NCBI GenBank assembly: GCA_964016885.1
Contig: OZ024740.1
Span: forward strand, 40,920,001-40,984,000
Length of the DNA: 64,000 bases
DNA from: Eledone cirrhosa
Lineage: Eukaryota
Direction: 5' to 3'
The notes under the pieces are model-generated. The model was not told where the DNA came from. It ran no database searches and saw only the letters and a program-made list of their open reading frames with translations. Of the stretch, positions 3,591-51,281 are shown piece by piece (the first letter of the stretch is position 1; each line of letters begins with the position of its first letter). A program made the translations under genes and the position numbers.

Positions 3591-4096
3591 AGTACAATAT
3601 AAACCTAATTTATCTGAGTCTATGACGTTTATGGTGAGATTTTAATCTCAACCTTAATCTCAATGAAATGCTAAAAATATTTATGACTGCTAACTTGGTA
3701 TACATTTCAGTGATTCTGACATTATGTTGTTAATACTGTCATGAATAGATTATATTGAACGTGTAAATGAATATTTTTAGTAATCCCACAAAGATATGTG
3801 TGTGTGGTGGGGGATTAGTTTGGAAAATATAAAAAAAAAATGCAAAAAACCTCCCACAAAAAATAATGGCCTTTTGAGCAGACACAATTTGTGGAGAAAT
3901 GGGATATTTTGGTATTTATACATTATTAACAGCAACTATTACAGTATTAACAGCAAAGCTGTCAGTCAAGTGAAACTAATAACAAAAGAGTTCTTTAGTA
4001 ATTTCTTACACATGCATATACATATGGATATCTTCCCCAACACTTGTGTACATAGTCACATACAGGCAGACACACAGACAGATATATATATAGATA

Positions 4097-5862
4097 TATC
4101 TGGGTCTGATAGAGGCATCTGGGTCTGTAGGTCACACTATAACCACACGTATTGTTAACCAGGTAATACTAGAAGGTATCATACCAAAACATTGGTGCAG
4201 TAGCATCATTGTCAACTGCTACAAAGGTAAAGGTGATGCACTAGATAGAGGAAACTATAGAGGTATAAAGCTGATGGACCAGGTCATGAAAGTAACAGAA
4301 AGAGTTATAGCACAGTTGATTAGGGACCGGGTGAAAATAGATGAGATGCAATTTGGGTTTGTACCAGGAAGAGGCACCACTGATGCCCTCTTCCTTGTGA
4401 GGCAGTTACAGGAAAAGTACCTAGCTAAAAGTAAACCACTCTACCTGGCATTTGTCGATCTCGAGAAAGCCTTTGACAGAGTTCCACGTGCTGTAATCTG
4501 GTGGGCTCTTAGAAAACTAGGAGTAGATGAATGGCTTGTGAAAGCTGTACAAGCCATGTATAGGGGAGCAGTCAGCAAAGTTAGGATTAGCAATGAGTAT
4601 AGCGAGGAATTTAGCGTACAGGTTGGTGTCCATCAGGGTTCTGTTCTTAGCCCTCTCCTGTTCAACATAGTCCTACAGCAATAATGGAGGAGTTTAAGAC
4701 CGGATGCCCATGGGAACTCCTGTATGCTGATGACCTCGCACTTATAGCTGAATCTATGGTAGAACTAGAGAAGAAATTCCAAACTTGGAAGCAGGGACTA
4801 GAAAGAAAGGGTCTTAAAGTCAACATGACAAAGACTAAGGTCCTTGTAAGTAGATGAGAAAACAGAACCTAGATCCCCTCAGGGAAATGGCCTTGCTCAG
4901 TATGTAGGAAAGGTGTAGGTAGGAACTCCATTCTCTGCCCCAAATGCAAACAATGGGTACACAAGAGATGTAGCGGGATCTCAGGAAGCTTAATTAAGAA
5001 TGTAGGCTTCACATGCAGCAGCTGTGCTGGGACAGCAAGCAGCAAACAGCTACAGGAAACAAGTACCACCAATCTCTGGGAGGACTCTGTAGAAACAGTA
5101 GACAGCTTCTGCTACCTAGGTGACCGAATTAGCAGTGGAGGTGGGTGTTCAGAAAGTACAATAACTAGGGTAAGAACGGGATGGAAGAAGTTCAGGGAAC
5201 TACTGCCACTGCTAGCTGCAAAAGGCTTCTCCCTCAAAATGAAAGGCAGACTGTATAATGCGTGTATCTGAACAGCAATGTTGCATGGTAGTGAGACCTG
5301 GGCGCTGAAGGTGGAAGACTTACGTAGGTTAGAAAGAAACGAAGCCTGCATGCTCCGATGGTCGTGTAATAGTAATATATGCGAACGACAAAGCATAAAT
5401 GAATTGAGAGAGAGACTGAGCATAAGAGGAATCAAATGCTGTGTGCAGGAGAGGCGGTTGCGTTGGTATAGACATGTGATGCGTATGAAGGATGACAGCT
5501 GCATAAAAAGGTGTAGAGCACTAGAAGTCAATGGAAACCTAGGAGTGGGGAGACCCAAGAAGACCTGGGATGAGGTGATAAAAGCCGACCTTACCCAATT
5601 ACACCTCTCAAAGGCGATGACACACGACCGTGATCTCTGGCGTCACGCAGTAATACAGAGTACCCGACCTCCCATGGGTACAAGCTGAAGCATATAGACA
5701 ATATGCCCCCACACCCTCCCTCTGCAAGGTGGTCGTGGAGGTGCCACGGCAAAAAAGCACCCAGCCCACACTGTAAAGTGGACGTGTAGGCGCCACGGAA
5801 AAAGCACCCAGCACTCACTGTAAATGAGGTTGGTGTTAGGAAGGGCATCCAGCTGTAGAAAT
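4097..5862 (+). mobile_element. 5'-truncated RTE LINE (RT, PHD finger, C-terminus, 3'UTR), disrupted
   Basis: QFGF, AFVDLEKAFD, GVHQGSVLSPLLF, YADD and RLRWY motifs; frameshift near 4680, stops near 4855 and 5269; RTE-type 3'UTR. Confidence 0.92.
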
Positions 5863-6940: not shown

Positions 6941-7386
6941 CAGAAGGGTCTCAAATATGAAATATATATAGCAGAGTCTCATATATACCATACATATATA
7001 GAAGAGTCTCACATATATTATATACACAGAAGGGCCTCGTATATATATAAACACTGAAGGGTCTCATATATATATTATATATACAGAAGGGTCTCATATA
7101 TATATTATATATACAGAAGGGTCTCATATATATATCATATATATATATAGAGGGGTCTCACATATATAATATACTAGCTGGCCCGTCCAGCTGGCGCCCG
7201 GCTAGGTATACCGGGATTTTATCTTTTCAGGAATCCCCCCTACACTCCAGTGCAAAGATACTGCATGCCCTCTTAAGTCAGCAAGGGAGGGGGGGGGGTT
7301 AACGTGCTCTGATGTTGGGTTTGAATAGTTTTTAGGATTCCACAGTTCAGTAGAGGGTCTCATATATATTATATATACAGAAGGGT
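6941..7386 (+). repeat. ~31 bp minisatellite (gaagggtctcatatatatattatatataca), resuming at 8596-8636
   Basis: About 8 visible units, interrupted by a Helitron-like fragment and an RTE insertion. Confidence 0.85.
7174..7350 (-). mobile_element. Helitron-like 3' end fragment
   Basis: Minus strand ends in a GC-rich hairpin cccgggcgccagctggacggg followed by CTAG|T. Confidence 0.5.
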
Positions 7387-8566
7387 GTTGAGGAATGGCT
7401 TGTGAGGACAGTGCAAACTTTGTACAGAGGTACTCTCAGTAAAGTCAGGGTAGGAATGGAGTTTAGTGAGGAATTCCAGATACAAGTAGGAGTACATCAG
7501 GGTTTGGTCCTCAGCCCGCTCTTGTTCATTATAGTCCTCCAAGCCATAACAGAGGAGTTTAAGACTGGCTGTCCATGGGAACTTCTCTATGCTGACGATC
7601 TGGCTCTTATAGCAGAATCAGTAGAGGAGCTAGAGAATAGATTCTGGCTATGGAAACAGCAGTTGGAAGCAAGAGGACTGAGAGTAAATCTAGCTAAGAC
7701 AAAAGTGTTGATGAGTAGAAAAGAGGACAAAACCCTGATTCCGTCAGGGAAATGGCCATGTTCGATATGCAGAAAAGGAACTGGCATAAATTCTATAAAA
7801 TGCACACAATGCAGGTCCTGGGTACACAAGAGATGTAGCGGGATAGCAGGCAAACTAACAGGTAGGGAGAAATATGTATGCAGTAGATGTACAGGGAAAT
7901 TAGACAGTAGAAGTCGCACTGATAGACACATTTTTCAAATGCGAGAGGGCGCTATAGAAGTGGTGGATAGCTTCCGGTACCTAGGAGATCAGATTAGCAT
8001 GGGAGGAGGGTGTTCCGAGGCCATAGTATCTAGAATAAGGACGGGTTGGAAGAAGTTTAGGGATCTGCTTCCTCTGTTGACGAAGAAGGGTTTCTCCCTG
8101 CGTACGAAAGGCCGGTTGTATGATGCCTGTGTGAGGAGCGCGATGCTGCATGGTAGTGAGACATGGGCAGCAACCGCAGAGGATATGCGACGGCTGGAGA
8201 GAAATGAGGCAAGCATGCTCCGTTGGATGTGCAGTGTAAATGTGCGTGAACGACCCAGCATAAATGTGTTGAGAGAGAAACTGTGTCTGAGAGGGATAGA
8301 ATGTAGTGTACGGGAGAGGAGACTGAGGTGGTATGGACATGTGATGCGCATGGAGGATGACCGATGGGTGAAGAAGTGCCAGGAAATGCCAGTTGAAGGA
8401 AGACGTGGTAGAGGTAGACCACGAAAAACATGGGCGGAGGTGGTGAGAACAGACCTCAGATCATTGAAGCTCACGGTGGAGATGACGAGGGACCGTGACG
8501 AGTGGAGAGATGCTGTGCTGAATAAGACCCGTCCCACCCTTGCAAGCAGGGAAAAGCGGACGTAAA

Positions 8567-9925: not shown

Positions 9926-10187
9926 CAAAGAGTAAATTCTATTGAAATTCAGAGGGTTGTTTCCTTTATTTCACTTGACAAGAGTTAGCCTTAACATAAT
10001 ACTTGATCCTTCACCCTATAGATGTATTTTTCTTGCCAGGCTATATTGCATTCATGCCTGTTTTCACTGGAAATAACTTTTCTTCTGACATAATTTCCTA
10101 ATTCACTGGAATATATAAAGAAATGCCAAACATTTCTCATATATGAATAAACTATAGCAAAAAAAAAAAAAAATCATTTCGGCATAA

Positions 10188-10219
<32 letters not shown>

Positions 10220-10247
10220 ATATATATCCGGTCAGTTTTTTATCTTC

Positions 10248-10278
<31 letters not shown>

Positions 10279-10280
10279 TT

Positions 10281-13200
10281 TGTTGTGGCCGCGGATGGCC
10301 AACATAACCCCAACCCCATCCCCCTCACCCCTCCCTGCGCCCCACCCACCAAACGCAATCCAAAACTTCAGAGTTGGTACCATAAATGTAGGCACCTTAA
10401 AAGGCCGCTCTAACGAGGTTGTAGAAATGCTTGAACGTAAGGAGGTTGATGTTTGCTGTATCCAAGAGACCAGGTGGAGGGGCGGGTCTGCTAGATTCAT
10501 TGTGGGTAAAAAAACGATGCTATAAGCTTTTCTGGGTGGGAAATGACAATGGGCTGGGTGGGGTAGGAATCATGTTAGCAGAAAAATGGGTGGATAAGAT
10601 AATAGACGTAAATAGAGTGAATGACAGAATAATTAAAATAAGACTTGTTCTAAATAGAACTACTGTGACAGTAATATCTGCGTACGTGCCCCAATCCGGA
10701 CTGCCTGGCGCTATAAAAGACAGATTCTATGAGACACTGATGCTCACTACTGCCCAAATAACCGACAGTGATTATATAATTATTGCTGGCGACCTAAATG
10801 GTCACGTTGGACAACATTGTGACGGCTATGACGGAATCCACGGAGGCTATGGGTTTGGTACTAGAAATGAGGAAGGCTCCAAAATCCTGGAATTCTGTGA
10901 CGCAAATAACCTAACTATCTGTAACACTAACTTCAAAAAACGAGACAATCACTTGATCACCTACAGATCAGGGGAACATACCAGCCAGGTAGATTATATC
11001 CTTACCAGAAGACGTGACAGAGTGTCTGTTGTAAACACTAAATCCCTCCCCCATGAAGAATGCACCTCCCAACATAGACTGATAATTAGTGACCTCATAG
11101 TCAGGACGAGACGTACTCGATAGCAGAAGAGGACTATCCTCAGGAGAAAAATATGGAAGCTAAAGGACCCCACAGCCAGAAATAAATTTAAAAGCATATT
11201 ACTTGATGCTTTCGACAGTAAGGAAGAGCATTTAGAGTCGTACAATATAGAGGAACAGTGGGAATTCCTGAAAGCAAACCTGCTGATGGCGGCAGACGAA
11301 GTCTGTGGCTGGAGCAGGCCTATAGGCAGGAGGAGAGTAACATGGTGGTGGAACAGTAAGGTGGAGGAGTCAATTAAGGCCAAAAAGCAGGCTTGGAAAG
11401 TATGGCGGGATGGGGGAAGTAGAGAAGACTATCAAGTGGCCAGGAGGGAAGCTAGGAGACAAGTGTACTTCGCAAGAAGGGAAGCAGAGGAAAGAAAGTT
11501 CAAGCATGTTCTACAACGCGAGGACCAAAAACGTGAGGTGTTCAGGATTGCTAGGCAATGTGTCAAGGAAAACCGTGATATTGTTGGGGAGAAGTGTGTA
11601 CTTAATGATGATGGTGTACTTGCCATCACTGACGCTGATAAGAAGGTAGCTTGGAAGTGTCACTATGAAAGGCTACTAAATGAAGAGAATAAATGGGAGA
11701 AAGACAGTCTCCCCCACATCAACCCAATAGAGGGACCAGCAGTGTTAGTCGAAGGTAGTATAATAAGTAAGGCAATCAAAGATATGAAGACGGGTAAGGC
11801 GGCTGGGCCTTCGGAAATAGTTGCTGAAATGCTGAAAGCTTCTGGAACGGTGGGACACACCATGGTCACCTGGATAGTAAACCAAGTCATACAGAATGGG
11901 GTTGTTCCGAAGGACTGGCATAGCAGCATCATCATTAACTGCTACAAGGGTAAAGGAGATGCCCTAGATAGGAGTAACTATAGAGGCATTAAATTAATCG
12001 ACCAGGTCATGAAGGTCACAGAAAAAGTAATAGCGCAACTAATCAGAGAGAGAATTGATCTAGATGAAATGCAGTTCGGGTTTGTGTCAGGCAAAAGTAC
12101 CACAGACGCTCTTTTCATTGTACGACAAGTACAGGAGAAGTACCTAGCTAAAAGTAAACCCCTATACTTAGCTTTTGTCGACTTGGAGAAAGCCTTTGAC
12201 AGAGTCACCCGCTCCATTATTTGGTGGGCTCTTAGAAAACTAGGTGTTGATGAATGGCTTGTGAGAGCTATACAAGCCATGTATAAAGAAACAGTCAGCA
12301 AGGTTAGAATTAACAACGAATATAGTGAAGAGTTTAGCGTAAAAGTTGGTGTTCATCAGGGCTCCGTTCTTAGCCCCCTACTATTTATTATTGCCCTTCA
12401 GGCTATAACAGTGGAGTTCAAGACCGGCTGCCCATGGGAACTCCTATACGCAGATGATCTAACGCTCATAGCTGAATCAATGGCCGAACTAGAGAAGAAA
12501 TTCCAAACATGGAAGCATGGCCTAGAATCAAAAGGCCTTAAAATTAACCTGTCTAAGACTAAAGTTCTAGTTTGTAGGAAGGAAAATAGGGCGCCGGTCC
12601 CATCCGGGAAATGGCCATGCTCAGTGTGTAGGAAAGGAGTAGGTAGAAACTCCATTTTATGTCCCAAATGCAAAGTATGGGTGCATAAAAGATGTAGTGG
12701 GATCACAGGTAAGCTAACTAAGAACATAGATTTTATATGTAGCCGGTGCTCTGGTGCAATAAGTAGCAGCAAGTGCCCACAGAATACTAGCTCATTCCAT
12801 TGCACAGATGGTTCTATAGAAATAATGGACAGCTTCCGTTACCTGGGTGACAAAATAAGCAGTGGTGGAGGGTGCTCTGAAAGTACAGTAGCTAGAGTCA
12901 GAACTGGATGGAAAAAGTTCAGAGAGCTTATACCACTATTAGCCGCTAAAGGGTTCTCCCTAAAAATGAAAGGCAGGCTGTATGATGCCTGCATACGAAC
13001 AGCAATGTTGCATAGCAGTGAGACCTGGGCATTGTGTGCAGAGGATATACGCAGACTGGAGAGGAACGAAGCTTGCATGCTCCGCTGGATGTGTAATAGT
13101 AATATACGTGAACGGCAAAGCATAAACGAACTAAGGGAGAAATTAGGAATAAGAGGGATCAGATGTTGTTTACTCGAGAGAAGACTACGTTGGTATGGTC

Positions 13201-14009
13201 ACGTGATGCGCATGAAAGACGACAGCTGTATAAAAAAGTGCAGGGCAATAAAAATAAACGGTAGCCATGGAGTAGGCAGACCCAGAAAAACCTGGGACGA
13301 CTTGATAAATTCCGACCTCACACACTTACACATCTCCTAGACAGTGTCACTGGACCGAGATCTTTGGTGCTACATAGTAATAGAGAAGACCTGCCTTGCC
13401 TAAGTACAAAGCGAAACCTACAGTCAGTAGGCACCTCTAACAAAATACACCCCCGTCCCACTACCCCCACCCCATCCACACCACCCCTTTCAATGTAAAG
13501 TTATGTTGGTACCACAACATCCAGTCCTAAACAAATGAGGTCGTGTAGGTGTCACGACAAAAAAACACACAGTCCACGCTGTAATGTGGCCATGTAGGTA
13601 ACACGGTAAAAACCTCCCAGTTCCACACTGTAAATGTGGTTGGTGTTAGGAAGGGCATCCAGCCGTAGAAAACCCGCCAGACAGTCCACGCTGTAATGTG
13701 GCCGTGTAGGTAACATGGTAAAAACCTCCCAGTTCCACACTGTAAATGTGGTTGGTGTTAGGAAGGGCATCCAGCCGTAGAAAACCCGCCAGACAGTCCA
13801 CGCTGTAATGTGGCCGTGTAGGTAACATGGTAAAAACCTCCCAGTTCCACACTGTAAATGTGGTTGGTGTTAGGAAGGGCATCCAGCCGTAGAAAACCTG
13901 CCAGACAGTCCTATGCGAGCAAGACAACCTATCTTGCCTCAAGTGGGAAAACTCCCGTCCAAACCCATGCAAGCGTGGAAGATGGACGTTAAACGATGAT
14001 GATGATGAT
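10281..14009 (+). mobile_element. Near full-length RTE LINE (APE endonuclease, RT, PHD), inactivated
   Basis: APE motifs TINVGTL, IQETRW, GDLNGHVG, SQVDYIL, SQHRL; RT ORF 11286-13340; frameshift in the A-run near 10510, stops at 11121 and 13338; 3'UTR ends gacgttaaac(gat)n. Confidence 0.97.
13569..13910 (+). repeat. Three near-identical 112-bp tandem units in the RTE 3'UTR
   Basis: acagtccacgctgtaatgtggcc starts at 13569, 13681 and 13793. Confidence 0.95.
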
Positions 14010-14078: not shown

Positions 14079-14256
14079 TAATTAGAAAGTGAACAACACA
14101 AAATATAACTACTCCATTACCAAAGGTTTCATGACCCTAGACAATAATATACGCCTAGATTGTTCATCAGACGAACCATCTAGACATATATTAATATTAT
14201 CTAGGGTCCTGAAACCTTTGGTAATGGAGTAGCTATATATTGTGTTGTTCACTTTC

Positions 14257-19800: not shown

Positions 19801-21148
19801 AGAGAGGTTTCCTTGCGAAACTGTTATCTTTTGCTCTGGTTCGGTTGTCAACCCCTTTTGCCTGCCTTCTATTGTATGTGGTCACGGATGTTTTTTTCCC
19901 CTCTCCCTTTCCTTTATATTATATTTGTTTGTGCTTTCGTTCTGTAAGCATTGTATTATTATAACTCTTTTTATACAACAGTGAATAAAACCTATTATAT
20001 GTAATATGTAATAATAATATGTAATTGCGTAATATGAACTGTTGGGGCACATAAACTACTCGCTTCTGTGTTTTACTTTTCTTTTTTCTTTGTTTTCCCC
20101 TTCCCTTTATATTATATTTGTTTGTGCTCTCGTTCTGTAAGCACTGTATTATTATATTTCTTTTTTATACAACTGTGAATAAAATATATTAAGCTGAATA
20201 TGATTTCAAACGAATGAAACATGTTCCTTCTCTACTAATGTATTGAATACCTTATTTAACTGCAGTTTTTTCTTGATAACCCATCGGAAAACTATCCTTA
20301 AATATGTGTGCACGTTTATGTGTAAACATTACACACATACACATTGCTAGCGCTTGTTGGATAATCTGAAATTCATTGAAGCTATTCTTACACTGTTTAC
20401 TTCGCTGTGAAATAATACAAGCAAGTGTAAACAAACAGCTATATTTGTCCATGTGCAGAAACATTTCGCCTATCTTACGAGGGTAGAAATATATTTCGTC
20501 AATATTTACTAGTTTCGTCACATTTTTGAGATTCAGTGGAGGGCAAGCTATTCGTACTTTTCTAACGACGGAGAAACACAAACACTTGTTTACAATTCGC
20601 AGCAAGGTTAAAATTGCCGACGCATCTGTATTTAAATGTTACGCACTATTATATAAACACTTGTTTACAGTGGAGCTAAACTTGTTTCTCTCTGTCTGTC
20701 ACACCACACACACACACATTATATATATATAATTCAAATTTAAAAGATATATGTAGAAAGAGAAAGAATCATATATCGTTTGAGAAACAGTATTTTGTAA
20801 ACATATATAAAGCAAATAATATATAGGAAAATATAAGTACTTTAAGGTGAAAAAAGTCATTTTTTCCTTACAATGCTATTTCATAGTTTAAAAAATCGAA
20901 GTGCAACCATCGACCTGAGTAATCAACTATTGATTTTGGTCGATGGTTGCACTTCGATTTTTTAAACAAAACAACGAAAGACAAGGATCTAATCATCTGA
21001 TAAATTGTCTTAATATAATGTCCCACACTGTACAAAATACCTTTATATCCGCCGAGAGCAGTATATATGGTAAATAATTACTGCCCGATGGCTGGGCTCG
21101 CGTCGTCGGGTACTATTTACCACACATTTATATACGATACATATATAT

Positions 21149-22105
21149 ACTAGACATGAAAAATGCGCAAGCTCAAAAGTGCCACAGAATGTTATAATAA
21201 ACCTTCAAAAGTGTGGGACTAGAGTTGTTGCTAAAAAATATTGTAATCATTATATATCGTACATTCTGTGGCATCCTTTATAAAAATAGCTTAAACCAAC
21301 GAAGCCTTTATTTTTACGCTATTTCACTTAGTTAATTCTTAGAGTGTAACATATAAAAATATGATTTACAACTATAAAATAAATTAATTAATATAATAAC
21401 AGAGCTGCGGAGCTGAAATTTAGGAAATAATGGAGTATCGGATCCTGAGTTGGAGCCAGTCAATTTTTAGCCGACTCCGCAGCCCTGTATAATACATTTC
21501 ATATTAAAGTTATTAATAAACCTATTTTACACTGCATGCAAATTACCATGAGATATTGATATTAGATATAAGATACAGCGCAATATCTACAGCTGTAAAA
21601 GTACGAAAGCGAAGTAATAATAAGTGGCTTAAGGTAATTCCAATATGAAAGTTTGTAGTGATAAAAATTTGATAATGCAATACGATTGTTAATATTATAG
21701 TTCTATGAAAATGTAACAATAGATAACTAAATTATTTTACTATTAGTATATTTAAGAAATTATCATTATAGAATTGATCGTTCATATAAGCATCATATTA
21801 ATTTTCAACACAATTATTTTGTTACTATGAGTATATGATAATAATATTACGTAATTATTTATAGCTGTTATTACATTAAACATAGATGTATTTATTTTTA
21901 TATGTTACACTCTAAGAATTAACTAAGTGAAATAGCGTAAAAATAAAGGCTTCGTTGGTTTAAGCTATTTTTATAAAGGATGCCACAGAATGTACGATAT
22001 ATAATGATTACAATATTTTTTAGCAACAACTCTAGTCCCACACTTTTGAAGGTTTATTATAACATTCTGTGGCACTTTTGAGCTTGCGCATTTTTCATGT
22101 CTAGT
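21149..22105. mobile_element. MITE-like element with ~212 bp near-perfect terminal inverted repeats
   Basis: 21149-21361 is the reverse complement of ~21894-22105; ends ACTAGAC...GTCTAGT; AT-rich interior. Confidence 0.9.
21400..21487. mobile_element. Tiny hAT-type MITE nested in the larger MITE
   Basis: TIRs CAG(A)GCTGCGGAG / CTCCGCAGCCCTG; 8-bp flanks tataataa and tataatac. Confidence 0.75.
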
Positions 22106-22659
22106 TTAATATTTTTTTAAGGCAACGCTTGTAATAACTCTAGTTAAACAGGATATATATTAATAATAAATTATCGTTGTAATGTAATTAGATTATGTAA
22201 TTGTTATTATAAATTATCTTATAAATATTAGTGTAAGATGTATAAAAATATTTTCAGACTTTTAATATAAACAACTACAAAAAACAATCAATATTAAATC
22301 AATATATTATACATAATAGAAGACATAAAATAAACAATACAAATACAAAATATTTACATACAATTGCAATTATCAGTGTATATACATTTTCTTTATATTC
22401 CCTGAGCAAATTAATAAGATTTGTTTTTATTGTACATAATTTGATGACTTGTTGGTGTGTATTAAAAGATAGCAACAATTTGTGATTAAATTGTTATCTT
22501 AAGCAACTCACTTTTTAATAGTTGTTGGCTGAGCGAAATTGTAAAAGCCTATGAGCAAATATAAAAAAAAATACACAAACAACATTTCCTTGTGTTATTA
22601 CAACATTAGATAAAATAATTGAGCAATGTCGTTATATTTTGCTCTTATTGCACATTAAT

Positions 22660-26020: not shown

Positions 26021-26111
<91 letters not shown>

Positions 26112-26124
26112 TATATAAACAATG

Positions 26125-26377
26125 AGTTATTTAATTTGTTGATTATTCAACAAAGTTAATTTATAACAGACTAGAAGGACTCGACAAAATTCTTCTGGAG
26201 TATAATATTGATAAATGGAAACTATTTTTATAAAACCATATTTATTTTATTATATATATTTCAAGGGTACCAGTATTTTGGTCCGCACTCATCAGATAAA
26301 ATACAAAAATTGGTAAACCAATTTTTGTATTATATATAATAAAATAAATATGGTTTTATAAAGATAGTTTCCATTTA

Positions 26378-26388
<11 letters not shown>
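26125..26388 (-). mobile_element. Non-coding PLE-derived fold-back mini-element, family A
   Basis: Inverted arms around 26200-26388, flanked by (TA)n; homologous to 27160-27465 and 45180-45638. Confidence 0.8.
26243..26303 (-). ncRNA. Minimal type I hammerhead ribozyme
   Basis: UAUUUUAU-CUGAUGA-stem II-GAAAU-AUAU-AUA-AUAAAAUA; stem I fully complementary. Confidence 0.75.
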
Positions 26389-26420
<32 letters not shown>

Positions 26421-27159
26421 ATATATATATTCATGCATTCATTTCATATATCTATATAATCATACACATTCTTAGTAACCATATTTTTCTCATCAAAGTT
26501 TACTATTAATTGACACGAGTGCACGAGAAATATACACAAATACAACAGGTTATTGGCATAAACAAACATTGGTATTACAAGACCAAGAATAGCTTGTTCC
26601 ATATAACTTTGAGGTAATTGATTATCTTATAATCATTATTTGTACTATTTATCTGTATTATCTTAACTGGTAAATTTACAAGTTTTGGAAGGCCGTATTC
26701 GTTCAAAACAAAAACAAATAAAATCACAAGAAAAACGTAAATTTCGTCTTAAAATTCTAACCAAGCCTACATATTTGCTAAAAAAAAATAAAATTATTAC
26801 ACCCGTCCCCGTCCCTTAGACGGGTGTAAGAATATAGAGTATGAATATTTATATTTGTTGTTTTTCGTGTGAAGCTGTAGAAGAAACCACTAATGTTATT
26901 AAGATTCTTAATCGTTTTAACAAGCCCCTCTTTGTTTTTAAACTGTCTATTGACAACTTTCACTATTTCTGTCACTTTATCACTCTGTTAATAGTGAGTG
27001 CTAGGTTTCTCTGAATGAAATAGATGTCAATGCCTTCTACACACTAACAATACGGAGAGGGAACTGCCTAAGCGAAGAGAAATAACATACACTGTAAAAT
27101 AATCAGAATTCTGTGAACACAAAACATTAAATATATATACTTCCAAATATATATATATA

Positions 27160-27465
27160 TATAATATATTAACAAATGCAACCTTCACGGTTGGAGTCTC
27201 CAGGAGACTCCGACCGCGAAGGTTGCATTTTTTCAGGGTATGTCAATATTTATTTATAAAACTAATCTATATTATATTTTATCTGATGAAAGCGCACCAT
27301 AATCTGCCTTGGTGGCCCTTGAAATATGTATAATGAAATAAATATGGTTTTATAAATATAGTTTCCATTTGTTAATATATTGTATATTTACTCCAATAAT
27401 TTGTTGAGTGCTTTATAACAGTTATAAAAATATTTTGTTTGTTGTATCTCAACAAATTAAATATA
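27160..27465 (+). mobile_element. Family A mini-element with a 5' hairpin (27173-27230)
   Basis: aaatgcaaccttcacggttggagtctcc-a-ggagactccgaccgcgaaggttgcattt, then a hammerhead and the shared 3' tail. Confidence 0.8.
27275..27340 (+). ncRNA. Minimal type I hammerhead ribozyme
   Basis: UAUUUUAU-CUGAUGA-aag..cacca/uggug..cuu-GAAAU-AUGU-AUA-AUGAAAUA. Confidence 0.78.
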
Positions 27466-27467
27466 AC

Positions 27468-32914: not shown

Positions 32915-34075
<1,161 letters not shown>

Positions 34076-34254: not shown

Positions 34255-34324
<70 letters not shown>

Positions 34325-34329
<5 letters not shown>

Positions 34330-35041
34330 GTATAATAAACAATACAATATAATTACCTCATTAGCAGAGGTTTCCCGAATAAGACGAATACGAAAAACGC
34401 CCTCATTCGTTCGTTGGACAAGGCAATTTAAAACACAGTGGAAAGTCTCCTCAAGAAATGCAAAACATATATAAATAAAAGTAATGAAAGAGATATATAA
34501 AAAATATAAGGAAATATAGTTAGGGTATGTGTATATGTATGTATATACACTCACAAATGTACATATGTGTGTATGTACAAATGCATGTGTATGGTGAAAA
34601 TGTGTGCGTAAGTACATATATGAGGGCAAGTATAATTGTGTATATGTGACCACAAATACGTATATAATATGAGTTGAAAAAGAAATTGTATGAAAATATA
34701 GTTGACACGCATCCAGATACAGGTATTAAATACACATACGAGTATGAAAGCACGCGTATAAACACACACACACGCGCGGTCACTTATATGCGGAAGATAA
34801 AGAGGGAAGGGAGTGTAATAGTAAAAAGAAGTGTCATTCTCGATATATGTATAAAAATGAAACAATATATGAGAATGAAAACATTTTTAAATCAAAGAGA
34901 AAGTAATCAATTAACACTAGAGAAAAGAAAACATAGGTACGCATGTACATACACATATATATATATATATAAAAATATTTATACACACAAATACGTACAG
35001 ACAAAAGCGCATGCATGCGTACATACATACACAAGAGGCAC

Positions 35042-35135
<94 letters not shown>

Positions 35136-36143
35136 CCCCATGTATATCTAATCACACGTACGTACGCGACTATATATTATATATATATATACACATATAC
35201 ATACACACCCATACATACATATACATATATACACATATACATACACATACACATACACATACATTCACCCGCATACACACACACGTAAAAATAAGAATGT
35301 AAAAAACATAGATATAAAAAAACATAGATATAAAAACACACATACGCACATATATACATACGTACGCACGCACACATACGGAGGCGTTCGTATACATATA
35401 CAGAAAATATACACACATAAGCACACTCAGACACATAGATACAGATTATAAATCAGCCATATGAATAAATGAGTACAAATATAAAATCGTCAGCGAAGCA
35501 ACAGAATATATCTGGTGTGGAAAACACAAGTGATAGTGATATCAGGTAGTGAAAGAAAATGGGGAAGTAAAATGTGGAATGTGAAGATATTAAGTAAGTG
35601 AATAAAAAAGTGTGTGTGTGTGTGTGTGTGTTACTGCTGGATGTGAAGTAAAATAAAAATTAAATTAAAATTAAAGTTAAAAATGAAAGTAAATCAGAAA
35701 GAGAAGTCTGTGAAGAGGATAATTTAAGGAAAGTGAAGAATAAGAGTTTATGGAGGATAAGTATCTGAAAGTTAGTTAAGTTTATATGAGCTGGAAAGCA
35801 AGTGTGATTTCATGTGTGGGCAACTGGTGAAAATTTCTGTTTTTGTATTTAGGCAGGTTTTTGGTGATTTAAGGTTCTGTAAAATCCAATATTTTTCACT
35901 TATGCAGAGTGTGCATCTTCTTGTTCCTCTTGCATATTCTTTAGATTGGTTTAAAATTGACCAATCCAATTTATATTGGATACCTTGGTCTTTCAAATCC
36001 CATATTCTGCTAGCCAGAGCTGTTGTGAATCTTTTTTCTGGATGTCGGAAAGATGCGATATGTGAGTAATAACGCGTTTTGAATTTGTCTTGTGTCATAC
36101 CCACATATCGTTCGCTGGTGGCTGGTTGGTTGTTGCTGATGAC
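34325..36143 (-). mobile_element. Inverted duplicate of the 3' part (GIY-YIG end and 3'UTR) of the adjacent Penelope
   Basis: ORF 35772-36146 nearly identical to 37549-37881; UTR mirrors 37882-39247. Confidence 0.92.
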
Positions 36144-38425
36144 CAACTCTTAATAGATAACATCACCAACTCTTAATAGATAACATCACCTCTAAATACC
36201 AAATAGCTAATATAAACACGTATAATAATATAAATAAGGAAGCTAAAGAATTAGCTAGTTCTTTAAAAATAGATAATAGGACAGAAAAACTTGCTAAACG
36301 TAATGAATATATCACCCTTAAAGATCACAAACCTGACTTTATTAATCGTCCTAGTTGTAGATTAATCAACCCTGCTAAGACTGATATCGGTATTGCCAGC
36401 AAAAAAAAAAAAATTTTAAATAATATAAACACACAGATTAGAAGTAGTTCTGAATTACTCCAATGGATAAATAGCTTTACCGTAGTACATTGGTTTAATA
36501 ATATTAAAGATAAAAATAGTTCTAGATTCACCCAATTTGACATTGTAGATTTCTACTCGTCTATCACTCAGACTCTTTTAGCGAAAGCCTTAAATTTCGC
36601 TAGAAAGTTTACCAATATTTCTGATATTGAAGAGAATGTCATCTTGCATGCTAGAAACACTCTACTCTTTACTGATAATGACACTTGGGTAAAAAATATC
36701 TAACCCAGAGAACCCATTCGATGTCTCAATGGGCTCGTTTGACAGTGCTGATGTTTGTGATTTAGTCGGCCTATTCCTCTTACACACACTTAAAGAAAAA
36801 TTCCCTAACCATATTTTTGGGCTTTATCGCGACCATAGGCCATAACTTAGATAGATTAAGGAAATACTTAATAAAAACCTTCGCTAGTTTTAATCTTAAA
36901 ATTACTATTGACACTAACCTTTCCAATGTTAATTTTTTAGATATAAACCTAGATTTGCCTACTGCTTCTTATAAACTATACCATAAACCTAATGAAAACT
37001 TGAAATATATAAATAAAGGCTCTTGCCATCCTCCTATAGTTTTTAAAAACCTTATCCTTAATATTAGCCGTAGGATCTCCACCATCTCTTCCTCAGAAGC
37101 TATTTTCAATAAGGCATCCCCCTACTATAATAAAGCCCTTCAAAATAGCGGATTTAGCGAACCGATTAAGTACATACCCAACAATACTAACTCTTTTAAA
37201 CATAATAATAGGAAAAGAAAAATAATCTGGTTCACCCCCCCCCCCACTCTCTAGCAGTTAAAACTAATGTAGGCAAAAAATTCCTAGAGCTCTTAGATAA
37301 ACATTTCCCTAGAACACATAGATACTATAAGATCTTCAATAGAAACTGTGTCAAAATTAGCTACTCCTGCGGTCCCCCTATTAAATCTTATATCATCAAT
37401 AAGAAATCACCCAGAGAACATCAAAATTGCTCCTGTAGAGTCAAAAGTGAATGCCCATTACAAGGTAAATGCAACACCAAAGCCATTGTATATGCGGCTA
37501 AAGTGACAACCAACCAGCAACAACCAACCAGCCACCAGCGAACGATATGTGGGTATGACACAAGACAAATTAAAAACGCGTTATTACTCACATGTCGCAT
37601 CTTTCCGACATCCAGAAAAAAGATTCACAACAGCTCTGGCTAGCAGAATATGGGATTTGAAAGACCAAGGTATCCAATATAAATTGGATTGGTCAATTTT
37701 AAACCAATCTAAAGAATATGCAAGAGGAACAAGAAGATGCACACTCTGCATAAGTGAAAAATATTGGATTTTACAGAACCTTAAATCACCAAAAACCTGC
37801 CTAAATACAAAAACAGAAATTTTCACCAGTTGCCCACACATGAAATCACACTTGCTTTCCAGCTCATATAAACTTAACTAACTTTCAGATACTTATCCTC
37901 CATAAACTCTTATTCTTCACTTTCCTTAAATTATTATCTTCACAGACTTCTCTTTCTGATTTACTTTCATTTTTAACTTTAATTTTAATTTAATTTTTAT
38001 TTTTACTTCACATCCACCAGTAACTCCTCCCTACTTTTCGATTCACTTACTTAATATCTTCACATTCCACATTTTACTTCCCCATTTTCTTTCACTACCT
38101 GATATCACTGTCACTTGTGTTTTCCACACCAGATATATTCTGTTGTTTCGCAGCCGATTTTATATTTGTACTCATTTATTCATATGGCTGATTTATAATC
38201 TGTATCTATGTGTCTGTGTGTATACGTTCTGTATATGTATACGAACGCCCCCGTATGTGTGCGTGCGTACGTATATATATGTGTGTGTATGTGTGTTTTT
38301 ATATCTATGTTTTTTTTATATCTATGTTTTTTACATTCTTATTTTTACGTGTGTGTGTATGCGGGTGAATGTATGTGTATGTGTATGTATATGTGTATAT
38401 ATGTATATGTATGTATGGGTGTGTA

Positions 38426-38472
<47 letters not shown>

Positions 38473-39250
38473 GCGTACGTACGTGTGATTAGATATACAT
38501 GGGGCGATACATATATATATATACGTGCCTCTTGTGTATGTATGTACGCATGCATGCGCTTTTGTCTGTACGTATTTGTGTGTATAAATATTTTTATATA
38601 TATATATATATGTGTATGTACATGCGTACCTATGTTTTCTTTTCTCTAGTGTTAATTGATTACTTTCTCTTTGATTTAAAATTTTTTCCATTCTCATATA
38701 TTGTTTCATTTTTATACATATATCGAGAATGACACTTCTTTTAACTATTACACTCCCTTCCCTCTTTATCTTCCGCATATAAGTGACCGCGCGTGTGTGT
38801 GTTTATACGCGTGCTTTCATACTCGTATGTGTATTTAATACCTGTATCTGGATGCGTGTCAACTATATTTTCATACAATTTCTTTTTCAACTCATATTAT
38901 ATACGTATTTGTGGTCACATATACACAAATATACTTGCCCTCATATATGTACTTACGCACACATTTTCACCATACACATGCATGTGTACATACACACATA
39001 TGTACATTTGTGAGTGTATATACATACATATACACATACCCTAACTATATTTCCTTATATTTTTTTTATATATCTCTTTCATTACTTTTATTTATATATG
39101 TTTTGCATTTCTTGAGGAGACTTTCCAAATATTTCACTATGTTTTAAATTGCCTTGTCCGACGAACGAATGATGACGTTTTTCGTATTCGTCTTATTCGG
39201 GAAACCTCTGGTAATGAGATAATTATATTGTATTGTTTATTATACATTAA
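36144..39250 (+). mobile_element. 5'-truncated Penelope-like element (RT, GIY-YIG, long 3'UTR), disrupted
   Basis: TLKDHKP, RLINPAK, FDIVDFY, MGSFD, GLYRD, VNFLD, RKRKIIWF, C.CRVKSECPL.GKC..VY.A, YVGMT..KTRYYSH; degenerate hammerhead at 39152-39219. Confidence 0.95.
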
Positions 39251-39419: not shown

Positions 39420-39570
39420 GTCCAACGAGCCGCAGATTACAGAGAGTGGGTAATAGGAAAAGGGTCAAGACCCCGACAGCTGAGCTCCGGTCGTTTCGAC
39501 AGCTAGACCCGAACAGTTCGGATCTAGCTGTCGAAACGGCCGGAGCTCAGCCGTTGGGGTCCTGACTATA
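39420..39570. mobile_element. Fold-back PLE terminal-repeat remnant (same family as 14355-14536)
   Basis: gtcaagaccccgacagctgagctccgg..tttcgacagctaga / tctagctgtcgaaac..ccggagctcagccgttggggtcctgac. Confidence 0.7.
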
Positions 39571-40794: not shown

Positions 40795-40905
<111 letters not shown>

Positions 40906-40946
40906 CAATAAACAAAAGAGACAGTTTTATTCGTACATCCCTATTT

Positions 40947-41020
40947 TATTCGTTATACGTATTTCGAAGACGTAGGGCAGTTATATAATAACTTCCCTAC
41001 GTGTTCTCTTCAGACAAATA
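40947..41020 (-). ncRNA. Intact minimal type I hammerhead ribozyme with a long stem II
   Basis: UAUUUGU-CUGAAGA-gaacacguaggg...cccuacgucuuc-GAAAU-ACGU-AUA-ACGAAUA; within a mini-element whose 40905-40942 is inverted at 41185-41225. Confidence 0.82.
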
Positions 41021-41310
41021 TACAAACGAGATGTAAAATTCCATTGATATGTTACCGATCGCCGACCAATAAGCATATGTCCAAATTTCTCTTGTATCAG
41101 TTTTTTGTGCGGGAGATAGTTGTTGCTGTTGCTGTTGGTGTTGGTGATTGTAAACTGGCTAGGGTATCAAGTTACTAGATTTCTCGGGATGTAAGAATAA
41201 AACCGCCTCTCTTGTTTATTGTAATACAATTCCGGATGAATAAAAATCGTGGAGTGCTTCACGTCTGTTAAAGAAAAAGTCAGCAGATTTTTAATCAACC
41301 AACTTTCTTC

Positions 41311-41373
<63 letters not shown>

Positions 41374-41376
<3 letters not shown>

Positions 41377-41920
41377 GAGGTGGTATCAAAAGGTTTCCGG
41401 ACTAATTTTGTAGCGCTAACAGATGGCAACACATGGTTGCGTGTGCAGTGAGAGCTAGCAGTGACCTTCATGTACCAGCGTGCCGAGTGACATCGCTGTG
41501 TTCACTTCGCAAGTTGTGAAATTTGTGTTTTGTGTTTTTGTGATCACGTGTATGCTGTAGCGTGTGATTTTGTCATGAACAGGAAGGTGGAATAAAGAGC
41601 CAATGTGAAATTTGGCGTTCAGCTAGGGAAGTCTGGTATAGAGACATTCATTGAGCATGCTTCGACAATGGGTCGTACGCAATGTTTCGAGTGGCCCGGG
41701 CGCTTCAAAAGCGGAAGAACGTCTCTGGAAGATGGCGAGCGATCTGGAAGACCTGCCACGAGCGTCACCCCCGGAAATGTGGAGAAAATTAATCAGCTTG
41801 TGCATGAGGATCGTCGGAGGACAATCAATGAAATTGCTGATGGTAGAGGGAGGACGTTCGGCGAAAGCGACCGGATCTGTGGAGCGCGAAGAATTGGATT
41901 TTTCACGACGACAATGCACT
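41374..41920 (+). mobile_element. Deleted mariner element (5' TIR and transposase N-terminal HTH)
   Basis: TA-CACGAGGTGGTATCAAAA TIR; RANVKF.VQLGKSGIET..MGRTQCFEW..RFKSGRTSLED.ERSGRP..VHEDRRRTI. Confidence 0.88.
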
Positions 41921-42262
41921 ATATCACTTTATCCAACAGGGTCGTCGATATCGACGGGTAGAAGTCCACTATGTCAAACTGGGTGAATTTAGCCTAGTCG
42001 CTGTTTTCCCATTGGGACAGGTTGGATTTCATCCTAATGGTCTTAACTAGTCCTCTAAGAATAGATTTGCTGACTATCCCCATCGATGTACGTGCTGGGT
42101 TCAACAGTTTACAAGTAGGGTTAGTAGCAAAATCGGCCTTGTGATCCTTAAGGGTTAAAAAGGCCTCACTCTTAACTAGGCATTGTAATTTCTCATCTAC
42201 ATTCAGAGTGGAGGCTAGGTGCTTGGCTTCTCTATTGATGTTAATGTAAGATGAGGGGTTTG
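41921..42262 (-). mobile_element. Penelope RT N-terminal fragment
   Basis: AFLTLKDHKADFATNPTCKLLNPAR..QW, then FTQFDIVDFYPSIS. Confidence 0.85.
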
Positions 42263-42880
42263 CTATATATATATATGTGTCTGTGTGTGTAAGAGTAATC
42301 GTGGTAGAAATATGGGGAGGAGTTAAATGAACCAGAGTGTTAAAGTCATGAGACAGAGAGAAGATCAATATGATCTCATAACAGTGATCAATAATAAAGA
42401 GAGAAACCCCTTAAATGAAGGGAGAAAAATTAAAAGAAAATGGAAAGAATTCTTGAAAGAACGAAATAACTTTTCAACAGCAGACGGAATAGCACGAGAC
42501 TACTTCCAGACAAGTAGAAGTAACAATTTTAAAACCCGAGGAAGACTAGCTAGAATGTGGTGAACTGGGAATCGCTTGACTGATCATCTTCCAATAGACA
42601 TGAGGAGAAATGGAATGTTCCAGATGTTTGGTAACGGGATCTAGAAGTAGAAAGGCAGCAAAAAGAATGTGGAATATACAGGGGCCAGAGATTTACTGAA
42701 GTAACTTGTAAGTAAGATGTCAGAATATTGGAATAATGCACAAGGTGGAACCATTCCTTTAAGAAATTGATAACAGGTCTCCAGAATGCCATGCTTAAAC
42801 GATGGCAAGAAAAACACGTAATTGGCTAATACCAGAAACGAAACTGAATAGTCAGGAAGTGAACAAACAAAATTCACAAA

Positions 42881-45122: not shown

Positions 45123-45182
<60 letters not shown>

Positions 45183-45306
45183 AAAGTTTTATTTAAAATT
45201 GTTGGGTTACAACAAATATTTTATAACTGATATAAAGCACTCGACAAGTTTTTGGAGTAGATATACGATATTAAACAAATGGAAACTATATTTATAAAAC
45301 CATATT

Positions 45307-45372
45307 TATTTCATTATACATATTTCAGGAATACCATATTAAAAATATGGCATGCCTTCGTCAGATAAAATA
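45307..45372 (-). ncRNA. Minimal type I hammerhead ribozyme (left arm)
   Basis: Mirror image of 45527-45592. Confidence 0.8.
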
Positions 45373-45526
45373 CAATATATAAACAGTTTTATAAATAGTT
45401 TTGACGTACCATATTATAAGCGACCGTTATATTAGGAAGCTGACTGAATATCCAGTCAGCTTCCTAATATAACGGTCGCTTATAATATGGTACGTCAAAA
45501 CTATTTATAAAACTGTTTATATATTG

Positions 45527-45592
45527 TATTTTATCTGACGAAGGCATGCCATATTTTTAATATGGTATCCCTGAAATATGTATAATGAAATA
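45527..45592 (+). ncRNA. Minimal type I hammerhead ribozyme (right arm)
   Basis: UAUUUUAU-CUGACGA-aggcaugccaua/uaugguaucccu-GAAAU-AUGU-AUA|AUGAAAUA; predicted cleavage after 45584. Confidence 0.82.
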
Positions 45593-45632
45593 AATATGGT
45601 TTTATAAATATAGTTTCCATTTGTTTAATATC

Positions 45633-45685
<53 letters not shown>

Positions 45686-45690
<5 letters not shown>

Positions 45691-45843
45691 AATCCTATTG
45701 TTAATAGTTAGTATTTTTTTCACCCTAGCGAACCAGGTCCCTTACGATTTGAACACATGTATGTTTATACATGTGTTCAAATCGTAAGGGACCAGGTTCG
45801 CTAGGGTGAAAAAATACTAACTATTAACAACAGGATTTGCCAG
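45686..45843. repeat. 158-bp near-perfect palindrome adjoining (TA)n
   Basis: tggcaaatcct.ttgttaatagttagt...actaactattaacaa.aggatttgcca. Confidence 0.9.
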
Positions 45844-48147: not shown

Positions 48148-49000
48148 CAGGGGGTTCGTATGAGCACAACAAAAGATGCGACCCTCTCTTTCCTGCCTCT
48201 TTCCTGCTCATCAGCCAATCATATCTTCCATCATTTTCCTATCTGTTCATTCATTGTGTTGTCGATAAAAACCACATCACTCCACACATAGACTAGAGCT
48301 ACCTCTACTTGCTCTTTTGAGGGTACATCGAAAGCCTCTTCGCTTTTCGAGAGGCTGAAGTATATAACTTTTTCTTTCATTCTTCAATAAAATAAGTAGG
48401 CAAGGGAGCAGAATTTTCCGTGATACAGGTCTTCCACCATGTTTTTCGGTGACACAGCTCTCCAACTATTTTTGATTTCCATTTTGTTTCTCATGTTTAA
48501 AGATCTTTAGAGACTCAGAACATTGGCCAAGCTGTTGTCTGCACAGTGAAGATTTTTGTTGGTTATGGCCACTGTCTGTGTTTCACCTTACACATTTGTG
48601 TTTTTCTGAATATTTTCCTAAAGTCAATCACTGCAATTGTGTTACTTAAATATAATCGTTTTTTTCTTTGTCCTTTTTTACAGTTCACAATTTTCAGAAT
48701 TTTGGACAAATTTTTCTTCGAAAATAGTGGGGGTGTAATGGAAGCTGCTTCATTTTTTGAAACTCTTTCTCAACGCTACCCAGGGCCAGACTTTTAAAAT
48801 TTGAGACCAGTCTCTAAAACAATTGGTGTAAAAAAAAAAAAAATACATGGTTATTATTAAGGAACGAATCCCTTTTTTGTATCAGAAGTTTTAGATATGT
48901 CTTCCTGCTAGGTACGGGTATGTTCTTTGTAGAATTATTCAGGTGTTCTTTCTGCATGATGAATATAAGTCAATAGAGTGCTCAACCGAGGGAGCCAAAT

Positions 49001-51160
49001 AGTAGTAATAATAAATGTGAAGACTAAAATCCAAAGAGGGCTCGATAAGGATAAATATATATCAATATATAAGAACCCTAGAGCAAATATTTATTAAAAT
49101 AACAGATTAAAGTTTAAGCAAAGAATCGTTGCTTTCACCCTTAACGGGATCTTCTGAAACTAAAAAAAATCAATCTGTGAACGCAGAAGTAAATATTTCG
49201 AAAAACGTTGCAACCGAAGGAAAACAAGAAGACGATACTTTGGTTCGTGAAGACGTTCCCTGGCAATGAACGAAAAAAAGCGAAGATAATACGTTGCTAT
49301 GTGGATCGTGGAGAACAATTACACGCAAAGACAAAACCACGTTTATGGTATAAATGGAGTCATTAGACTAATATTCTATTTAGGAAACCGAATGATTCTC
49401 GGCTTCGGAGTTAAGAATAATTATTTCTACTTTTTGGCACAAGGCCAGCAATTATCCCAGTGCATTACTGGTACTTTATTTCATCGACCTCGTAAGGATG
49501 AAAGGCAAAGTTAACCTCGGCGGGATTTGAATTCGGAGTTAAGAATAATGTAAATAAATTAGTAGAACGAAAATGACAGAGGTTATTAAAATCATAAAAG
49601 TAATAATAATTAAATATATACATACACGCATCCATATACGTACATACACGTGCATATGCGAAAACACCCGCCATGCATGCATATACATGCACGTACACAC
49701 AAACACGCGCACACATTCATAAACCCGCGCGACACATGTACTCGCACACATACGAACGTATACACCAAATACACATACAAATATGTGTGTGTGTATACAT
49801 ATAATTATATAAACGTATATAAATATACACACATAAATACGTATATAACGCACGCACACACATACCTACAGGTAAATACACATATGTTCACCAAACGTAC
49901 GTCAAACAAAACACAAAGTACACATATACACACCTTACATACGTGCAAACACGCATACACGCATACACACACAAACACAAAATACACATATACACATAAC
50001 CATATACACATATACCAGTATATATAATATAATATATACACCTATAACAAATACAAGCATATATACGTACGAGAAAGTATACGTACTTTCACAAAACATA
50101 CGGGTAAGGTTTACTTACCTATACAAATAAGTAATGGTATAAACATAAAATATACTTAGCTACCACATCAAGACGTAGAATATCCGCGTATAGTTCGTAC
50201 TATCCGTTAGGGTATAATGTGGGGCTGTAATACAGGAAAGTTTTATGCAATTTGTGTTTACAAGCCGAAATTGCCTCAGATTTTTTGTTTAAGGTGTGAT
50301 CATTGGCTTAGAGTATTTCCAGGGTTTCAGCGGCACAAATATCGCATGGTCTTTTATTTCCGTTATATGATCTAGCTTTAGCTAGGATCTCCCGGTGTAA
50401 CCTATATTGGGCGTGGTTATCTTTTAGACTCCAGATATAAGCTGAAAGTGACTCCATATTCCTTCTTAAAGGGTTAAGAAAAGAATGGGTGTGCATGTAA
50501 AGACGCTGCTTGAATCTATTGGCGGTTAACTCTATGTAGGCCCTACTAGACGTGGGTGTTTCGACCTTACATTTGTAGACAATGTTACCGGAGAAGCATT
50601 TTCCGGATATAGGGCAGTCAACCCGATTCCTACAATTACAGTTAGTACTAGCTACAGGGTTGCACGTGTTCCTACGGCTAGGTAATTTAGCTAATTTTGA
50701 AGCAGTGATGTGCAAGAGTAAGTTGTTAGTCGTAGAGTAAAATATTTTAATGGTATTTCTATTAAAAATTTTATTATATTTATGTGCTGAGGGGAAATGC
50801 TTCTTAATAAGGGAGAGAAAGATCTTAGCTAATGGTGTGGCCACCTCCATATTATATGGTGGGTTATACCATATAATGCGTCTGGATCTATTTTTTCTTG
50901 GTTTATGCTCATACTTAGTATATGCTACCTTATCGACAAATCCACTACGAGCTAGAGCTTCATTGTAATATGTGGAATGGTCGGTGAAAATATGCTCGTT
51001 TGTAGATAGACGGGAAAGCCTCAAAGAAACGTTTCTTACCAGGTTCTTGGTTATGCTGGCAGGATGGTTAGAATGCTTACTTATGTAATTAAGCGTATCA
51101 TTCGTCTTTCTATACGGGTAGTGCAAGCCATTCGACAAATTGAGGGTAACGTCGAGGTAA
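49001..51160 (-). mobile_element. 5'-truncated Penelope-like element (RT thumb, GIY-YIG, long 3'UTR)
   Basis: ORF 50308-51138: HSNHP, RSRRIIWYNPPY, CNCRNRVDCPISGKC..IVYKC, AYIELT..FKQRLYMH; SINE inserted at 49422-49531 with 18-bp TSD ttcggagttaagaataat. Confidence 0.93.
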
Positions 51161-51281
51161 TCGTGTTGCCTTCAATGAGGTGAGTGCAGGTTCCACAATT
51201 AGAGCGACCACATTTTTTGATACTTGGTTGTGGGTTTGGGTTCCACAATTAGAGCGACCACATTTTTTGATACTTGGTTGT

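Follow-up and report, generated by a model that had tools for sequence, protein, structure and literature searches.

The DNA studied here, a stretch of 64,000 nucleotides from Eledone cirrhosa (contig OZ024740.1, forward strand 40,920,001 to 40,984,000; the window in what follows), contains three short units, A1 to A3, each with a hammerhead ribozyme core, and the question they raise is what kind of element they are and how they come about. An earlier note on this DNA had read them as one family of non-coding mini-elements without a coding partner. Our analysis leads elsewhere: A1, A2 and A3 are almost certainly the terminal repeats (pLTR plus tail) of three related families of Penelope-like retrotransposons (PLEs) of the Hydra clade. 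The whole of our best explanation, in which these terminal repeats also owe their form to internal priming and run-off, is probable.

Hammerhead units in the window

A pattern search detected five type I hammerhead cores in the window, and none in the shuffled window (200 shuffles, 12.8 Mb). The features are listed below; positions such as -134 or +55 are counted from the predicted cut site.

26039..26117, (TA)n target at the 3' flank of A1 (other flank 26381-26430)
26118..26314 (-), A1 sense copy, hammerhead and tail up to (TA)n; starts 64 nt before the predicted cut site
26243..26303 (-), A1 hammerhead; stem I 26303-26296/26250-26243, core from 26295
26288-26263 (-), A1 stem II; C.C at position 4, two decayed pairs
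26259-26252 (-), A1 stem III, palindromic; predicted cut after 26251
26315..26388 (+), A1 inverted arm, a tail-less second copy with the ribozyme core deleted; ends at about +50 in (TA)n
27155..27198 (-), A2 inverted arm, a second copy with a large internal deletion; ends at about +58 in a TA run
27199..27467 (+), A2 sense copy, hammerhead and tail; starts at -134, the shared 5' boundary
27221-27225 (+), A2 DPE-like GGTTG
27238-27243 (+), A2 donor-like GTATGT
27275..27340 (+), A2 hammerhead; core from 27283, predicted cut after 27332
27290-27320 (+), A2 stem II; C.C at position 4, one bulge
27324-27331 (+), A2 stem III
40946..41021 (-), family B hammerhead of the same subtype with different stems, absent from the earlier note
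45126..45179, (TA)n target at the 3' flank of A3 (other flank 45634-45686)
45180..45450 (-), A3 sense copy; starts at -136, tail to +135
45372-45307 (-), A3 sense hammerhead; predicted cut after 45315
45450..45641 (+), A3 inverted arm, 192 nt, a second copy, 98% perfect, that spans -136 to about +57
45474-45478 (+), DPE-like GGTCG of the A3 inverted arm
45527-45592 (+), complete hammerhead of the A3 inverted arm

Core and tail are common to A1-A3 (74-83% identity), as had been claimed, but the stems, then described as the same, are only near-identical: the 3' strand of stem I reads AUAAAAUA vs AUGAAAUA and stem III AUAUAUAU vs AUAUGUAU, and within the core N7 is U vs C. The stem II strings quoted at the time are correct, except that the third was taken from the inverted arm, whereas the tail-bearing copy of A3 lies on the minus strand. 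Decay accounts for part of their difference, since A1 carries two pair-breaking changes relative to the form that prevails among the sampled members of its family. (TA)n adjoins A1 and A3, but A2 is flanked 5' only by a short TA run and 3' by (CT)n(AC)n(TA)n. The family B hammerhead again has C.C at position 4 of stem II, has AUACGUAU as stem III and gives a fold z of -4.66 against shuffles. An Rfam scan of the window returned no hammerhead family at E<=1, only repeat-driven miRNA noise.

Other repeats surround these units. In 40890-42410 (-), a Hydra-type RT fragment is followed by the remnant of a Mariner-like transposase (~41370-41990) and this by family B's terminal repeat, with an inverted tail piece. 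A hammerhead-like motif of another class, with a long stem II and CCUCUGG as stem III, occurs at ~39150-39220 and 34323-34425, and this class has an intact core in locus L099. Three LINE copies with RT frames, presumably RTE-like from their resemblance, lie at 4094-5688, 7354-8565 and 10151-13340, the last with an endonuclease-like frame upstream. Tandem arrays occupy 58095-58646 (59-bp units, 9.4 copies) and 62435-62633 (37-bp units, 5.4 copies).

Coding partners of the Hydra type

First-look genomic searches, sister subfamilies included, gave 1320 candidates for A2, 3183 for A1 and 536 for A3, with identities among the 40 scored per unit of 97-99%, 87-92% and 95-97%, respectively; an A2-specific 20-mer had 143 exact genome matches. 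The earlier note had proposed extending such copies in the 5' direction in search of an autonomous ORF, and doing so reaches a PLE ORF with a reverse transcriptase (RT) and, at the C-terminus, a GIY-YIG endonuclease: the longer copies pass through 1.4-2 kb of AT-rich UTR into this frame. The linkage was found for A2 in L031 and L032, and inverted in L096, for A3 in L093-L095 and L097, and for A1 in L098 and L101, there with the endonuclease end only. The A2 unit of the window is 97% identical to L031 and the A3 unit 96% identical to L093, both ORF-bearing. What had looked like one family without a partner is thus three families, and for each of them the sequence runs on into a Hydra-type PLE ORF at other places in the genome. 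In L093 the tail directly abuts the ORF start of the next tandem copy, and partial tandem copies have been described for PLEs. An ORF near an A1 copy in L099, considered as a partner of A1, belongs to another family.

The A2 and A3 proteins share 73-75% identity over 239 residues, and a 68-residue fragment of the A1 protein shows 33-44% identity with both. The ORFs went unrecognised in Pfam and PDB sequence searches, and their domains were identified by comparing motifs. Copies of A3 display RWR, SDKT, ITMGSYD, GLYRDD, CNCRNKSNC and CxxC..E..N..CxH and lack CCHH, features that match, by eye, those given for the Hydra clade (PMC8557442, section 11, supplement and Fig. S7). An RT followed by a C-terminal GIY-YIG-type endonuclease in a single ORF is apparent by motif in A3 (L093-L095, frames broken) and in L249 of the sister family E, whose uninterrupted 821-codon frame likewise went unrecognised in the Pfam and PDB searches. 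This frame (L249:1029-3491, +) sits between inverted hammerheads. SDKT occurs with RWR in L094 and with RWT in L249, a region that the A1 and A2 sequences did not reach. The CxCX5C linker, the lack of CCHH and the CxxC/CxH pattern around a conserved E and N are seen in A2 (L032/L096) and A3 (L095), while the A1 fragment has CxxC..E..N..CxH only. The family with C.U in stem II, to which L249 belongs, likewise rides on a Hydra-type ORF, uninterrupted in that locus. Links to Hydra-type ORFs were established for A1, A2, A3 and E, out of a set that also includes families B, C, D, G and I.

With described Hydra-clade PLEs, Hydra-1_Obim included, the families share the C-terminal GIY-YIG, DKT, RW(K/R), the CxCX5C linker and the lack of CCHH, as well as the (TA)n target, a hammerhead close to the 3' end and an inverted 5'-truncated copy plus tail (PMC8557442). 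Insertion into (TA)n and a canonical hammerhead core, both marks of the clade, are present. The Hydra hammerheads in File S2 of that work have other stems, however, and by eye none combines 3 bp, C.Y and a long stem II; additionally, the 3' UTR here measures 1.4-2 kb, and the tail is ~80 nt long vs 30-40 in the Hydra elements described there. The earlier note had held that its reading would fall if all copies were simple truncations of a catalogued Penelope family. This is largely what they are, with the exception that the one cephalopod Hydra family catalogued in PMC8557442 has a different hammerhead. An octopus repeat annotation lists Penelope-like families and, in the portions available, does not mention ribozymes (PMC13282606).

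As the earlier note stated, the window itself holds no coding partner: two Hydra-type ORF fragments in it (37507-37881 and 50308-51171) are 31-38% identical to the partners' proteins. The first belongs to another Hydra-type PLE at 35650-38003, with a broken ORF (36161-37881, +), 489-nt inverted repeats of 99% identity and ~31% identity to the A-family endonuclease region. The second lies in a fragment of a third Hydra-type family at 49856-51171 (-), to which pieces at 32986-33879 and 48999-49343 are related.

A covarying ribozyme with an unpaired C

The CUGANGA/GAAA/UH core lies within three covarying stems, as in a type I hammerhead. Between A1, A2 and A3, three stem II pairs are changed on both sides (positions 2, 5 and 6). 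Across 17 family representatives, 85.1% of the cells are paired vs 68.1% after shuffling and 30-53% in slid controls, and 66 cells are changed on both sides vs 21.7 in the shuffles; the representatives were hand-picked, and both kinds of control ignore relatedness. A pair count anchored on 34 of 49 clusters agrees, although leaving out the other 15 (fewer than three stem I pairs) inflates stem I positions 1-3 in this count, and some of the rows kept came from non-C.C searches. One stem I pair passes from A-U through G.U to G-C among subfamilies, the swap of A-U for G-C being present in 25/25 readable ACG copies. The earlier inference that structure is conserved despite sequence change therefore stands: the changes are compensatory, and the fold has likely been under selection in the master elements.

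For the ribozyme, cutting is predicted in the dimer only. Its palindromic 8-mer stem III cannot close as a hairpin (+4.7 kcal/mol), whereas pairing with a second copy yields -2.2 to -10.5 kcal/mol. Dimeric PLE ribozymes with a comparable stem III are known (PMC4209133). Minimum-energy folds of the units did not recover the active core, and A2 folded no better than shuffles (z -0.67). The minimal hammerheads of PLEs share with ours the location in pLTRs, the short palindromic stem III and the long stem II (PMC4209133). For those hammerheads, a short stem I is reported, along with a stem II whose 5' end has an unpaired base; here, stem I has 8 bp and a distal helix, and it is position 4 that is mismatched.

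This position forms no standard pair in any of the 17 representatives, a C standing opposite C or U, while in the same families the neighbouring positions alternate between A-U, G-C and U-A. Genome-wide, 74,533 exact core matches have C.C (reversed-pattern control 1), 28,198 have the 5' C opposite another base (control 59; mostly U and one large family, among 100 matches listed) and 4,618 lack the 5' C (control 96). The 5' C is thus present in 102,731 of 107,349 core matches, a total that counts both arms of palindromes. Position 4 lies, by our assumption, roughly at the place from which loop II of extended hammerheads docks on stem I, facing the internal loop beyond the 8-bp stem I. The unpaired C might dock on this loop or on the PLE protein, a tentative reading that we hold at a little below even chances. 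Alternatively, the C could have no structural role and be inherited from a common ancestor or be part of a DNA-level motif; all families are related and the pair counts are uncorrected for phylogeny, but free swapping of the neighbouring pairs beside a position unpaired in 17/17 makes this unlikely.

The number of sites is of the same magnitude as the 126,247 hammerhead motifs of the axolotl (PMC7229834). Our literature search found no description of the C.C mismatch or of a fixed pLTR start, and the PLE-dimer work of Lunse et al. may cover the subtype. In 448 kb sampled, at least three other hammerhead classes occur without the position-4 mismatch (L003, L042, L061, L066, L101).

Inverted arms, tails and 3' ends

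The fold-backs, of which the earlier note gave each copy its own, are not family-specific RNA structures but the known inverted, tail-less second copies that PLEs make at insertion. An inverted arm was present within 1.5 kb at 47 of 89 loci. These arms end between +50 and +58 in A2 (18/18) and A3 (15/16) and more loosely in A1 (+38 to +65 in 12/13), while sense copies run to ~+135. The 3' ends correspond to two TATAT-like sites, one at ~+55 and one at ~+135, which blend into the (TA)n target; in A3 each end immediately precedes a GTATAT motif continuous with the (TA)n flank. Often one long-ended copy is linked head to head with a short-ended one, and the result has the form of a PLE insertion, an inverted 5'-truncated copy with a tail at one end only. 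Hammerheads described for PLEs are similarly mostly single copies from truncated elements, with dual copies 100-700 bp apart on opposite strands (PMC4209133).

Several further palindromes lie in the window. Long near-perfect hairpins adjoin (TA)n at 14083-14256, 39461-39569 and 45720-45809 and are probably further products of head-to-head insertion. Perfect inverted repeats of 111 nt, in one of the pieces related to the third Hydra-type family, occur at 32986/33769 beside (TA)n, and a MITE-like element of 963 bp without an ORF (21146-22108) has 216-nt inverted terminal repeats of 100% identity.

Short units with type I hammerheads also recall non-LTR retrozymes, in which tandem repeats of 150-400 nt are cut to monomers, circularised and reinserted. 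The type I fold, the palindromic stem III and a very high copy number, as in the axolotl (PMC7229834), are in keeping with this, as are the short, non-coding nature of retrozymes, their tens of thousands of copies and their derivation from pLTRs (bioRxiv 2026.07.22.740005). Retrozymes, however, form head-to-tail arrays. Among the 100 family E-type matches listed there were no short head-to-tail neighbours (same-strand gaps >3.3 kb), and the units of the window are single or head to head; neither set contains head-to-tail tandem units each with a hammerhead. Given, moreover, that ends at the cut site are rare and that the units are continuous with coding elements, a retrozyme origin is extremely unlikely.

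A shared 5' boundary

Short units that share a defined 5' end do form a genuine class. Where random truncation would be expected to scatter the 5' ends, they cluster: 20/30 A2 ends fall at -143..-127, 16/30 A1 ends at -133..-109, clustered 8-9 nt downstream of an initiator-like A, and 13/30 A3 ends at -137..-123, the last sample being biased because the query began at -136. In a genome-order sample of 30 A2 loci, among them the window copy and, for some insertions, both arms, 22 ends lie at -143..-127 and none between -144 and -200. Head-to-head pairs of family E are spaced accordingly (14/28 at 142-200 nt, none at 201-1033, the rest >1 kb). In the window, A2 and A3 start at -134 and -136, and A1 is shorter, at -64. 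Counts of two A2 20-mers (143 and 288 genome matches) were useless for locating the boundary, since the upstream word is common to more subfamilies, and a truncation-baseline search was dominated by one subfamily and gave no baseline.

The boundary carries a YACTAYY-like sequence, with its ACTA motif at -138 in A2/A3 and at -122 in A1. Counted from this motif, RGWYV stands at +27/+28 in 43 of 53 rows, in the form of nine different 5-mers (the 53 rows are non-independent). We liken these motifs to the initiator and DPE consensus. The boundary might instead be a hot spot at which hairpins stall the reverse transcriptase, with plain random 5' truncation elsewhere and no promoter. In A1 and A2 small hairpins do occur close to the boundary, hairpin bases coincide with minor clusters at -104 and at -12 to -19, stalling would account for four A2 ends at -103..-105, and 5' truncation is general among PLEs. 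The main cluster, however, lies 5' of the hairpins with an empty zone upstream, and the spacing of the initiator- and DPE-like motifs is kept across subfamilies, which renders stalling quite unlikely as the full account.

An internal initiator/DPE promoter in the pLTR is known from Penelope of Drosophila virilis (PMC2377424). The splice donor of that element lies 46 nt past the start, and a donor-like GTAYGT is found here 42 to 45 nt past the start, but A1 has no GT at the site. Since the 13 matches in the search for spliced genomic copies comprised seven point mutants, six unrelated repeats and no spliced copy (0/13), we rejected the reading of this site as an intron donor. Copies starting at the ribozyme cut site are rare: among 471 genome matches with a non-A base before +1, the 30 inspected comprised 26 mutated ribozymes, one internal deletion and three true cut-site junctions. 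None of 30 ORF-bearing A3-type copies starts at -143..-123, although about nine of these diverge as subfamilies and their true ends were not read. In A2, distances are 0.017 between long and short copies and 0.020 among short ones, the two kinds interleave (25 loci, four variable columns), and diagnostic variants are common to both.

A shared 5' end together with internal promoter motifs is also what a SINE-like family would have, in which solo pLTRs are transcribed by themselves and re-copied in trans by the PLE protein. As the ORF-bearing copies lie off the boundary, a full element is not required as the source of the short RNA. On the other hand, short copies are no closer to each other than to long ones (weak, with 25 loci and four columns), most start a few bases past the initiator A and so lose it, and most short-ended arms have no tail; a SINE-like origin thus seems rather unlikely.

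Discussion

We favour a run-off mechanism for the short units, and consider it fairly likely. The PLE reverse transcriptase would prime inside an uncleaved transcript and run off at the transcription start, so that the 5' boundary would mark the start of the internal initiator/DPE promoter. The endonuclease would nick (TA)n on both strands, the two nicks would prime at the TATAT-like sites at ~+55 and ~+135, and the two cDNAs, joined at their far ends, would form a palindrome. The outcome would be solo or palindromic terminal repeats in (TA)n. The template may have been the 5' pLTR of full transcripts, or solo-pLTR transcripts; the variants common to short and long A2 copies favour shedding from the same masters (four columns only). 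Against run-off stand the 0/30 ORF-bearing copies at the boundary, the start of A1 at -64, the clustering of A1 ends 8-9 nt past the initiator-like A and the A2 ends at -103..-105. The first of these suggests that full elements arise from longer, read-through templates.

Parts of this mechanism have been observed in vitro for Poseidon of the anole, where the tail lies between two internal priming sites, both strands of AT-rich target DNA are nicked, and the template is uncleaved RNA, ribozyme cleavage not being needed (PMC11167929). That element belongs to another clade, and its priming sites are located within the ORF and have no homology to the target; those here, by contrast, are (TA)n-like. 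Run-off products at a promoter start are not described in the available portions of that work, nor is a fixed 5' boundary in those on Hydra elements (PMC8557442).

The units are thus of a known kind, the pLTR-plus-tail ends of Hydra-clade PLEs, and neither an orphan RNA family nor tandem retrozymes. New relative to the literature searched are the families themselves, the subtype with C.Y in stem II, present at ~100,000 sites, and the short class anchored at the putative promoter. In its most far-reaching form, which we judge almost as likely as an even bet, our proposal is that of an undescribed subtype of ~100,000 copies in which the unpaired C makes a tertiary or protein contact that is required. 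The short copies would be fossils of a strong-stop-like pathway, in which two cDNAs, both primed at TATAT, run off where the promoter starts and become linked as MITE-like palindromes; this would explain the inverted repeats and tails of PLEs, and the ribozyme would not be used for making the template.

These findings bear on how PLEs form their inverted repeats and tails, and on the role of the hammerhead. Given that the families are young (95-99% identity) and a sister ORF is uninterrupted, the model is directly testable at exact predicted start, priming and cut sites. The conserved mismatch offers a concrete mutant for studying the activation of weak PLE ribozymes. Finally, and speculatively, editing or silencing enzymes could find a source of double-stranded RNA in the many short perfect palindromes.
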